This document shows positions 45,300-45,762 of a stretch of 64,000 nucleotides of DNA, one piece after another; position 1 is the first letter of the stretch, and every line of letters starts with the position of its first letter. The notes below the pieces were generated by a model. The model did not search any database. It was not told where the DNA came from and saw only the letters and a program-made list of their open reading frames with translations. A program made the position numbers and the translations under genes. The DNA is taken from assembly GCF_055900595.2 (NCBI RefSeq), contig NZ_CM148325.1. One strand, given 5' to 3'.

Positions 45300-45762
45300 G
45301 CTGGGGTGAGGCTTTTCCCTCACCCAAACCCTCTCCGTGAGGAGAGGGGCCGCGCCGGATGCGGCGTAAACGCCTTATCCGGCCTACAAGAACGTGCAAA
45401 TTCAACAAATTGTGCTTTGTTTTTGTAGGCCTGATAAGCGTAGCGCATCAGGCAATTAGCCCATCTTCTCCATGTGGAGAGGGGCCGCGCCGGATGCGGC
45501 GTAAATGCCTTATCCGGCCTACAAGAACGTGCAAATTCAACAAATTGTGCTTTGTTTTTGTAGGCCTGATAAGCGTAGCGCATCAGGCAATTAGCCCATC
45601 TTCTCCATGTGGAGAGGGGCCGCGCCGGATGCGGCGTAAACGCCTTATCCGGCCTACAAGAACGTGCAAATTCAACAAACTGCGCTTTGTTTTGTAGGCC
45701 TGATAAGCGTAGCGCATCAGGCAATAAGCCCCACCTTCTCCATGTGGAGAGGTGGGATTGGA
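45300..45762. repeat. REP/BIME array: about 3 tandem copies of a 135-bp unit, each with an inverted REP pair, between mtlA and mtlD
   Basis: Unit beginning gagaggggccgcgccggatgcggcgtaaacgccttatccggcctac... recurs at about 45342, 45477 and 45612 with a partial fourth copy; a separate hairpin ggggtgagg-ctttt-ccctcaccc sits at 45311-45333. Confidence 0.85.

Follow-up and report, generated by a model that had tools for sequence, protein, structure and literature searches.

A tandemly amplified REP element between mtlA and mtlD as a rare copy-number variant in Escherichia coli

Repetitive extragenic palindromic (REP) elements are the commonest non-coding repeats of Escherichia coli, and their function is still debated. 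Here, we describe a tandem array of such elements in the spacer between mtlA and mtlD of the mtl operon, found in a 64,000-nucleotide stretch of E. coli DNA (NCBI RefSeq assembly GCF_055900595.2, contig NZ_CM148325.1), which is referred to below as the window. The array is made of three 135-bp units, and we consider it, with a probability of roughly 0.8, to be a copy-number variant of a REP element of which E. coli normally has a single copy between mtlA and mtlD. The variant is real but rare, the element has long been known, and the array is otherwise an ordinary strain polymorphism. What is slightly unusual is the BIME-1 type (BIME, bacterial interspersed mosaic element) of the amplified pair, together with the position of its boundaries in hairpins derived from a BoxC-like element.

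This reading is carried by a census of the spacer in 5426 complete E. coli genomes. Spacers built from a Z1 REP, an L-type linker and a Y REP (Z1-L-Y) form a series with a length of 94 + 135n bp. This type, with one to three units, was present in 3458 genomes, of which approximately 3440, K-12 included, had one unit (229 bp), nine had exactly two (363-364 bp) and nine had exactly three (498 bp). Another 872 genomes, O157:H7 included, had an empty spacer of 94 bp. Three units were thus found in 0.17% of the genomes and two or more in 0.33%, and the unit-to-unit junction was confined to the 18 amplified genomes. There was no sign of more than three units among the 5426 genomes: none had more than three places matching a junction query, and the only listed genome with three such places was an isolate from a goat. 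The comparison with other E. coli mtl operons that a preliminary description of this DNA had proposed as a check therefore revealed a true 0/1/2/3-unit polymorphism, and the number of BIME copies arranged in tandem at a particular locus is known to differ between strains (PMC3333891). A further 1042 genomes (19%; for example Z1323HEC0423, ZLWT and MS 200-1) carried another, unrelated allele, in which Z1, a truncated linker and Y precede a 101-bp Y-Z2 unit in one, two or three copies (spacers of 318, 419 and 520 bp). This allele fits an atypical BIME and has its own copy-number series with a design like that of the REP325 array of K-12.

In the window, the spacer occupies positions 45265-45762 (498 bp), of which 421 bp (85%) are taken up by the array. 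The sequence was read directly, and repeats were scored by Tandem Repeats Finder and by a second repeat finder that makes ungapped comparisons. Tandem Repeats Finder reported a single array at 45332-45752 (period 135, 3.1 copies, 96% matches, score 777), with a consensus path free of indels. The second finder returned three 135-nt copies at 45332-45466, 45467-45601 (98%) and 45602-45736, the third of which scored only 73%, as a 1-nt deletion puts it out of register in an ungapped comparison. In addition, a 23-nt hairpin repeat (direct-repeat family D2) occurs four times exactly 135 nt apart, at 45325, 45460, 45595 and 45730, and the copy at 45730 corresponds to what the preliminary description had called a partial fourth unit. 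That description had also claimed three near-identical 135-bp units, each with an inverted REP pair, which together nearly fill the spacer. Both repeat finders bear out the units, each of them holds a Y REP and, inverted relative to it, a Z-type REP, and the coverage is that given above. Only the orientation had to be corrected: the mtl operon lies on the minus strand, and the array is therefore read from 45762 downwards (from right to left along the window).

In the transcribed direction, each unit is composed (5′ to 3′) of a short hairpin, a Z1 REP, an L-type linker of 36-37 nt with a site resembling that of integration host factor (IHF), and a Y REP. After the mtlA stop codon, the spacer consists of 6 nt, a hairpin that we name H′, a REP pair, two blocks of a junction hairpin plus a REP pair, and a tail of 89 nt; all of these features are on the minus strand. 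H′ (CCCACCTCTCCACATGGAGAAGGTGGGG; 45729-45756), which begins 6 nt past the stop codon, belongs to family D2 and has a predicted RNA folding energy of -19.9 kcal/mol. Among the direct repeats at the unit boundaries it is the upstream partner, and E. albertii and the E. coli alleles with one unit have it as well. The REP pair of unit 1 (45624-45722) comprises Z1 at 45694-45722 (29 nt), the L linker at 45658-45693 (36 nt) and Y at 45624-45657 (34 nt); both REPs match the REP pattern, their predicted hairpins have energies of -13.2 (Z1) and -19.5 kcal/mol (Y), and the linker contains ATTCAACAAACTG (plus strand), with two mismatches to the IHF consensus. It is followed by junction hairpin 1 (CCCCTCTCCACATGGAGAAGATGGG; 45595-45619; -8.9 kcal/mol), a hybrid whose left side is that of the distal BoxC-like hairpin and whose right side is that of H′. 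In unit 2 (REP pair 45489-45588), Z1 lies at 45560-45588, the L linker at 45523-45559 (37 nt), with the IHF-like site ATTCAACAAATTG at 45535-45547 on the plus strand, and Y at 45489-45522. Junction hairpin 2 (45460-45484) is identical to junction hairpin 1, and unit 3 (REP pair 45354-45453) repeats the arrangement with Z1 at 45425-45453, the L linker at 45388-45424, its IHF-like site at 45400-45412 (plus strand) and Y at 45354-45387. Units 2 and 3 are one single-nucleotide polymorphism (SNP) apart, and all three units can be told apart by fixed SNPs and a 1-nt indel. The tail lacks REPs and contains a hairpin CCCCTCTCC-TCAC-GGAGAGGG, a hairpin GGGTGAGGG-AAAAG-CCTCACCC and a third CCCTCTC block, before the Shine-Dalgarno sequence and start codon of mtlD.

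REPs are imperfect, extragenic palindromes of 30-40 nt with GTAG/CTAC as a conserved foot, and a genome holds many of them. All six REPs in the spacer have the GTAG/CTAC foot and predicted hairpins of -13 to -19.5 kcal/mol, which identifies them as REPs. The window holds more matches to the REP pattern than expected (36 vs 15.5), and the median number of places matched by a query of the central 801 bp was 18 in an E. coli genome. The RefSeq record of MG1655 has no REP feature annotated at the mtlA-mtlD spacer.

The flanking genes were assigned by NCBIfam models. Upstream of the array lies mtlA, encoding the mannitol transporter IICBA of the phosphotransferase system (45763-47676, minus strand; stop codon at 45763-45765; NF011663, 1324 bits vs a cut-off of 589), which bears this name in matching RefSeq genomes. 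Downstream are mtlD, encoding mannitol-1-phosphate 5-dehydrogenase (44116-45264, minus strand; NF002648, 879 bits vs 719), and mtlR, the last gene of the operon and so named in RefSeq (43529-44116, minus strand; NF008234, 256.6 bits vs 149). The Shine-Dalgarno sequence AAGG of mtlD (45273-45276) and its start codon (45262-45264), read on the minus strand, lie in a stretch, 45262-45276, that is identical across all E. coli alleles. Three separate observations concern the surroundings of the spacer. mtlD and mtlR differ by approximately 2-10% per bin between haplogroups; the region 42254-42750, upstream of yibL, is hypervariable among E. coli haplogroups (118-181 differences per 250-nt bin vs K-12 and O157, plus indels); and the assembly of E. 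coli JM83 has mtlA annotated as a pseudogene with a frameshift.

To which class does the amplified pair belong? [quoted passage not shown] The Y type of the mtl array could be read straight from the sequence. Its Z has a short form, GCCTGATGCGCTACGCTTATCAGGCCTAC, while REP325 of K-12, which consists of six repeats of Y and Z2 (PMC4550694), carries a long form, GCCTGATGCGACGCTTGCGCGTCTTATCAGGCCTAC, when read from the K-12 genome; the short Z is therefore taken as Z1, by elimination among the three REP types. With Y and Z1 in inverse orientation, the mtl unit is by composition a BIME-1-type pair, although it occurs in three tandem copies in the window. BIME-2 identity was considered and rejected, as the Z is not of the Z2 form and the linker is long, so that only the tandem layout is shared. 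The array is multi-copy, as atypical BIMEs are; its composition is purely Z1-L-Y, without a BIME-2 motif, and a BoxC-derived hairpin lies between the pairs.

The mtl L linker is homologous to that of a single Z1-L-Y element at 23245-23345 of the window, and the linker motif TGCAAATTCAAYAWATTG is present in all three mtl units and, at 23284-23301, in this element (4 matches vs 0.4 expected in the window). The IHF core WATCAANNNNTTR occurs with one mismatch in units 2 and 3 and with two in unit 1. From the homology of the linkers to the L motif and from the literature, we infer that they may bind IHF. Besides the lone BIME-1-type element at 23245-23345, the window contains a degenerate pair of Y and Z REPs (36436-36520), a pair of a long Z and a degenerate Y (61500-61590) and a lone truncated Z-type half (56803-56830).

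With regard to the origin of the amplification, the one-unit alleles are informative. Their REP pair lies between two hairpins that resemble each other, H′, which follows the mtlA stop codon, and the first BoxC-like hairpin, which precedes mtlD, and in alleles whose distal hairpin has an ACAT loop (VCSW7 and strain 6409) the two share approximately 15 nt in direct orientation, CTCTCCACATGGAGA. The internal junctions of the eight amplified alleles examined are all one and the same hybrid (signature GAAGATGGG), the left side of which matches the context of the distal hairpin, GCGGCCCCTCTCC, and the right side that of H′, ACATGGAGAAG.TGGGCTAATT. All junctions have two private differences from H′, an A for G and one G fewer, and the remaining amplified genomes match a 66-nt junction query over its full length with at least 97% identity. 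The simplest reading of this common junction is therefore a single founding event of unequal exchange or slippage between the hairpins. On this reading, an unequal exchange or a replication slip between the ~15-nt direct repeats doubled the unit, a hybrid hairpin remaining where the copies meet, and later unequal exchange between whole 135-bp units then gave rise to three units. In the window, the three-unit state arose by duplication of unit 2. On the other hand, the middle unit of the goat strain is a chimera of units 1 and 2, with a unit-1-like 5′ linker and a unit-2-like remainder. Given units 2 and 3 of the window, which are a single SNP apart, and this chimeric unit of the goat strain, the step from two to three units occurred at least two independent times, by exchange of whole units. 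The reciprocal event would yield the empty spacer of O157:H7 and others. Indeed, the REP-free 94-bp spacer (for example in O157:H7 Xuzhou21 and MS6193) is the exact reciprocal of the duplication junction, with the left side of H′ and the right side of the distal hairpin, and E. albertii has both H′ and the REP pair, which favours deletion within E. coli for this allele.

Among the alternatives, amplification by the REP-associated tyrosine transposase (TnpA_REP/RAYT), through cleavage and strand transfer at REP-linked sites as suggested for arrays of the BIME-2 and atypical kinds, fares best, yet we regard it as unlikely. The E. coli enzyme cleaves and recombines BIMEs in vitro, and models that add tandem BIME units, as well as copy-number variation between strains, have been described; however, BIME-1 is the class said not to amplify (PMC3333891). 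Moreover, the junction falls inside a non-REP hairpin, exactly at the ~15 nt common to the flanking hairpins, where homology suffices without an enzyme, and the later unit chimeras are typical of unequal exchange. TnpA_REP models are possible for the mtl array, but they are not needed.

The function of the array can be approached from its predicted structure and from better-studied REP loci. The transcribed spacer has a minimum free energy of -236.7 kcal/mol (z = -10.2 vs shuffled sequences), with individual predicted hairpins of -8.9 to -19.9 kcal/mol. A scan for sigma-70-like promoters and intrinsic terminators found none within 45265-45762, on either strand for terminators. The array would be transcribed within the mtlADR mRNA and would fold into a row of ten stable hairpins, which, by analogy with REP325 and malE-malF, could block 3′-exonucleases and protect the mtlA mRNA. 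It may also cause a partial and partly Rho-dependent attenuation before mtlD-mtlR, and six REP hairpins would be expected to act more strongly than two. At the DNA level, three IHF-type sites might be offered. The most likely role, if that of REP325 is a guide, would be that of a stabiliser/attenuator between mtlA and mtlD-mtlR, possibly stronger with three units. REP325 confers stability on the mRNA of the upstream gene yjdM and attenuates the transcription that continues into yjdN, with Rho-dependence seen for the full array only and absent with two or four hairpins, and for tandem gene pairs with intervening REPs across the genome the median log2 upstream/downstream ratio is 0.96 vs -0.09 in controls (10.64898/2026.03.23.713779). 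The remarks on stabilisation, attenuation and binding of IHF or gyrase in the preliminary description would hold as general REP lore, and IHF would suit the L linker of BIME-1; gyrase cleavage of the specific type is a property of BIME-2. Termination of an upstream open reading frame (ORF) can also be hindered when a stable hairpin lies within approximately 15 nt of its stop codon. Cells with too little MtlD relative to MtlA are mannitol-sensitive, which might limit expansion of the array. Cells that have lost MtlD are likewise sensitive to mannitol, so that a strong attenuation would be expected to come at a cost.

A role of a different kind, as a gene for nucleoid-associated small RNAs such as naRNA4 of REP325 that act with HU on chromosome structure, seems very improbable. 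Such a nucleoid role has been proposed for REP325 (PMC4550694), and Rfam searches of the spacer at permissive thresholds gave, besides noise, naRNA4 (RF02564) matches that stayed below threshold and fell on the three Y REPs (32.5-39.3 bits, E = 2e-5 to 7e-4), 39.3 bits being the best score. However, these scores are well under the gathering threshold of 59.5 bits and cover the Y hairpin alone, the partner REP in the mtl array is Z1 and not Z2, and REP325 itself had no effect on nucleoid compaction or REP-REP contacts (10.64898/2026.03.23.713779).

We also considered whether an assembler had expanded a single unit into three, the scenario by which the preliminary description would have been refuted. 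The 405-bp array is longer than typical short reads, but the explanation is scarcely credible in view of the genomes that share the array. Three units are found in nine complete genomes from various laboratories and hosts. Eight of these, from a dog in Korea, a human in Japan and six other human isolates, do not differ from the window in the central 801 bp; they have equal 8-kb match scores to the window, and the two that were compared directly are identical, so that we treated the eight as one clone. The ninth, the goat isolate from Nebraska (USA), has a different internal pattern. The flanks of the window are unlike those of all of them: the best match over 8 kb, to the eight genomes, is 98.8%, and the window has no exact match of this length among the genomes of the collection. 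Taken together, the nine genomes and the window place the three-unit array on at least three flank haplotypes. The two-unit intermediates, present in nine more genomes with exactly two units, lie on at least two deeply different flank haplogroups, and the units themselves are separable by their fixed SNPs and indel. Assembly expansion is thus unsupported. As to a protein or repeat protein encoded by either of the two mechanical ORFs across the array (45320-45724, minus strand, 134 aa; 45359-45697, plus strand, 112 aa), both ORFs exist and the 135-nt period equals 45 codons, so that the frame stays open over the units, but the idea can be dismissed and the ORFs taken, as in the preliminary description, as repeat artefacts, because NCBIfam gave nothing above noise (best E = 0.009, 16 bits vs a cut-off of 70), the NCBI annotation pipeline PGAP places no coding sequence in the spacer of any fetched genome, the stop-free length grows by 45-codon units (56 or 76 codons with one unit, 101 with two, 146 with three) and is broken differently in other alleles, and the sequence is made of REP palindromes present approximately 18 times per genome.

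Several points weigh against the reading of the array as a copy-number variant of a normally single BIME-1-type element with the origin and role proposed here. A tandem BIME-1 does not sit cleanly with the description of this class as single-copy (PMC3333891), and the bare IHF consensus is not above chance in the window (68 matches vs 63 expected). Pseudescherichia and Pseudocitrobacter have BoxC-only spacers of 94-95 bp, so that the 94-bp allele of E. coli may be either a deletion or the ancestral empty state. RecA-dependent exchange, replication slippage and the action of TnpA_REP cannot be told apart as the founding mechanism from the sequence. The stabiliser and attenuator roles at mtl, and the effect of unit number on them, are drawn by analogy, and Harris et al. 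(10.64898/2026.03.23.713779) found the effects of REPs to be context-dependent, with half-lives not uniformly changed. A mechanism acting on translation initiation was also tried and rejected, as the predicted accessibility of the mtlD ribosome-binding site has no trend with the number of units.

The distal end of the array merges into a BoxC-like element in front of mtlD (45291-45349, minus strand), which consists of hairpin 1 (45329-45349), the downstream direct-repeat partner, hairpin 2 (45304-45325) and the third CCCTCTC block (45291-45300). An inverted repeat (I13) was detected in it by the repeat finder. A relaxed BoxC/TM_ECO pattern had a single match in the window, at 45317-45347 on the minus strand (0 expected), and the strict consensus, CCCTCNCCC N3-6 GGGNGAGGG N3 GGGNGAGGG (PMC4666352), is missed by two bases when read by eye. 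A blastn search for dispersed copies found one per E. coli genome, and the element is therefore not called a dispersed repeat; it has no Rfam family.

To examine the element in other species, mtl loci were drawn from 120 species-representative genomes by means of a degenerate pattern for the N-terminus of MtlD. The median mtlA-mtlD spacer was 99.5 nt (88 species with a spacer of more than 10 nt). The two-hairpin element was found directly 5′ of the mtlD ribosome-binding site in 27 distinct spacers of Enterobacteriaceae, which include E. albertii, Citrobacter, Enterobacter, Lelliottia, Pseudescherichia, Pseudocitrobacter, Phytobacter, Cedecea, Siccibacter and Mangrovibacter. Its arms are almost invariant among the 27, with loops of 5-25 nt, and RNAalifold on these orthologous elements detected one compensatory pair only, which neither supports nor excludes a function as RNA structure. 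An insert of approximately 125 bp (…TTCGAGCTGCAGGAAGGCGGCA…GTGAATCCCCAGGAGC…) was observed in the spacers of Citrobacter werkmanii, C. youngae, Enterobacteriaceae RIT691, Yersinia aldovae and Brenneria, which we take from its appearance to resemble an ERIC/IRU element, and other Citrobacter have a genus-type REP there. Since the inserts differ across species, the mtlA-mtlD spacer seems to be a recurrent landing site for different repeat families.

It is tempting, though at present improbable, to view the spacer as an unstable dial with settings of zero to three REP units, or one to three Y-Z2 units in the second family, in which gain and loss of the REP pair would be made possible by hairpin direct repeats that stem from a deeply conserved BoxC-like element, each step would measurably shift the ratio of MtlA to MtlD/MtlR, and lineages would hold selected settings. 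In this view, the BoxC-like element in front of mtlD, which at least ten genera have, would serve the mtl operon as a functional cis-element and would not be a passive repeat. Whatever its role, the natural allelic series of 0, 1, 2 and 3 identical units in otherwise similar operons is suited for testing how the number of REP hairpins affects attenuation and protection of the upstream mRNA. The array further shows that amplification can befall a pair of the BIME-1 type, a class described as single-copy, if short direct repeats lie on both sides of it. For annotation, it follows that the array should not be recorded as coding, and that short-read assemblies may miscount units there.

Compared with known systems, the mtl unit is closest in composition to the BIME-1 elements (also known as RIP/RIB elements), with which it shares two inverted REP types, a homologous linker of 36-37 nt with an IHF-like ATTCAAnnnnTTG core, and an extragenic site of the 3′ untranslated or intercistronic kind. 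The difference is that the mtl pair is present three times, and that the pairs are separated by a hairpin from the neighbouring BoxC-like element, with no named BIME flanking motif. In layout, the array resembles the BIME-2 array REP325 between yjdM and yjdN, as both have tandem REP pairs inside an operon, with a copy number that varies among strains. However, REP325 has Z2, short linkers and a 100-bp period, whereas the mtl array has Z1, a long L linker, an extra hairpin and a 135-bp period. For function, REP325 is the best experimental model of the mtl array, as an upstream stabiliser and a partial Rho-dependent attenuator.

The REPs between malE and malF presumably act through mRNA decay in the same general manner. 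They also lie right after the first gene of a sugar-uptake operon, and their hairpins are able to stop 3′-exonucleases; however, they form no strain-variable tandem array. In the corresponding decay model, REP hairpins stop 3′-exonucleases and thereby raise the upstream:downstream mRNA ratio (PMC5927463).

Finally, the element in front of mtlD is similar to the BoxC/PIT/TM_ECO triplex motifs (PMC4666352) in its succession of a pyrimidine block, a purine block, 3 nt and a second purine block (CCTCTCC-TCAC-GGAGAGGG-TTT-GGGTGAGGG) in a palindromic setting, and in a neighbourhood that is structurally unstable between strains. Loci with such motifs were reported to be unusually rearranged among E. 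coli strains (PMC4666352; Holder et al., 2015), which agrees with the variability of the mtlA-mtlD spacer, although the main text of that study does not mention the mtl genes. It differs from these motifs in being two bases off the strict consensus and in being positionally conserved across genera rather than dispersed.

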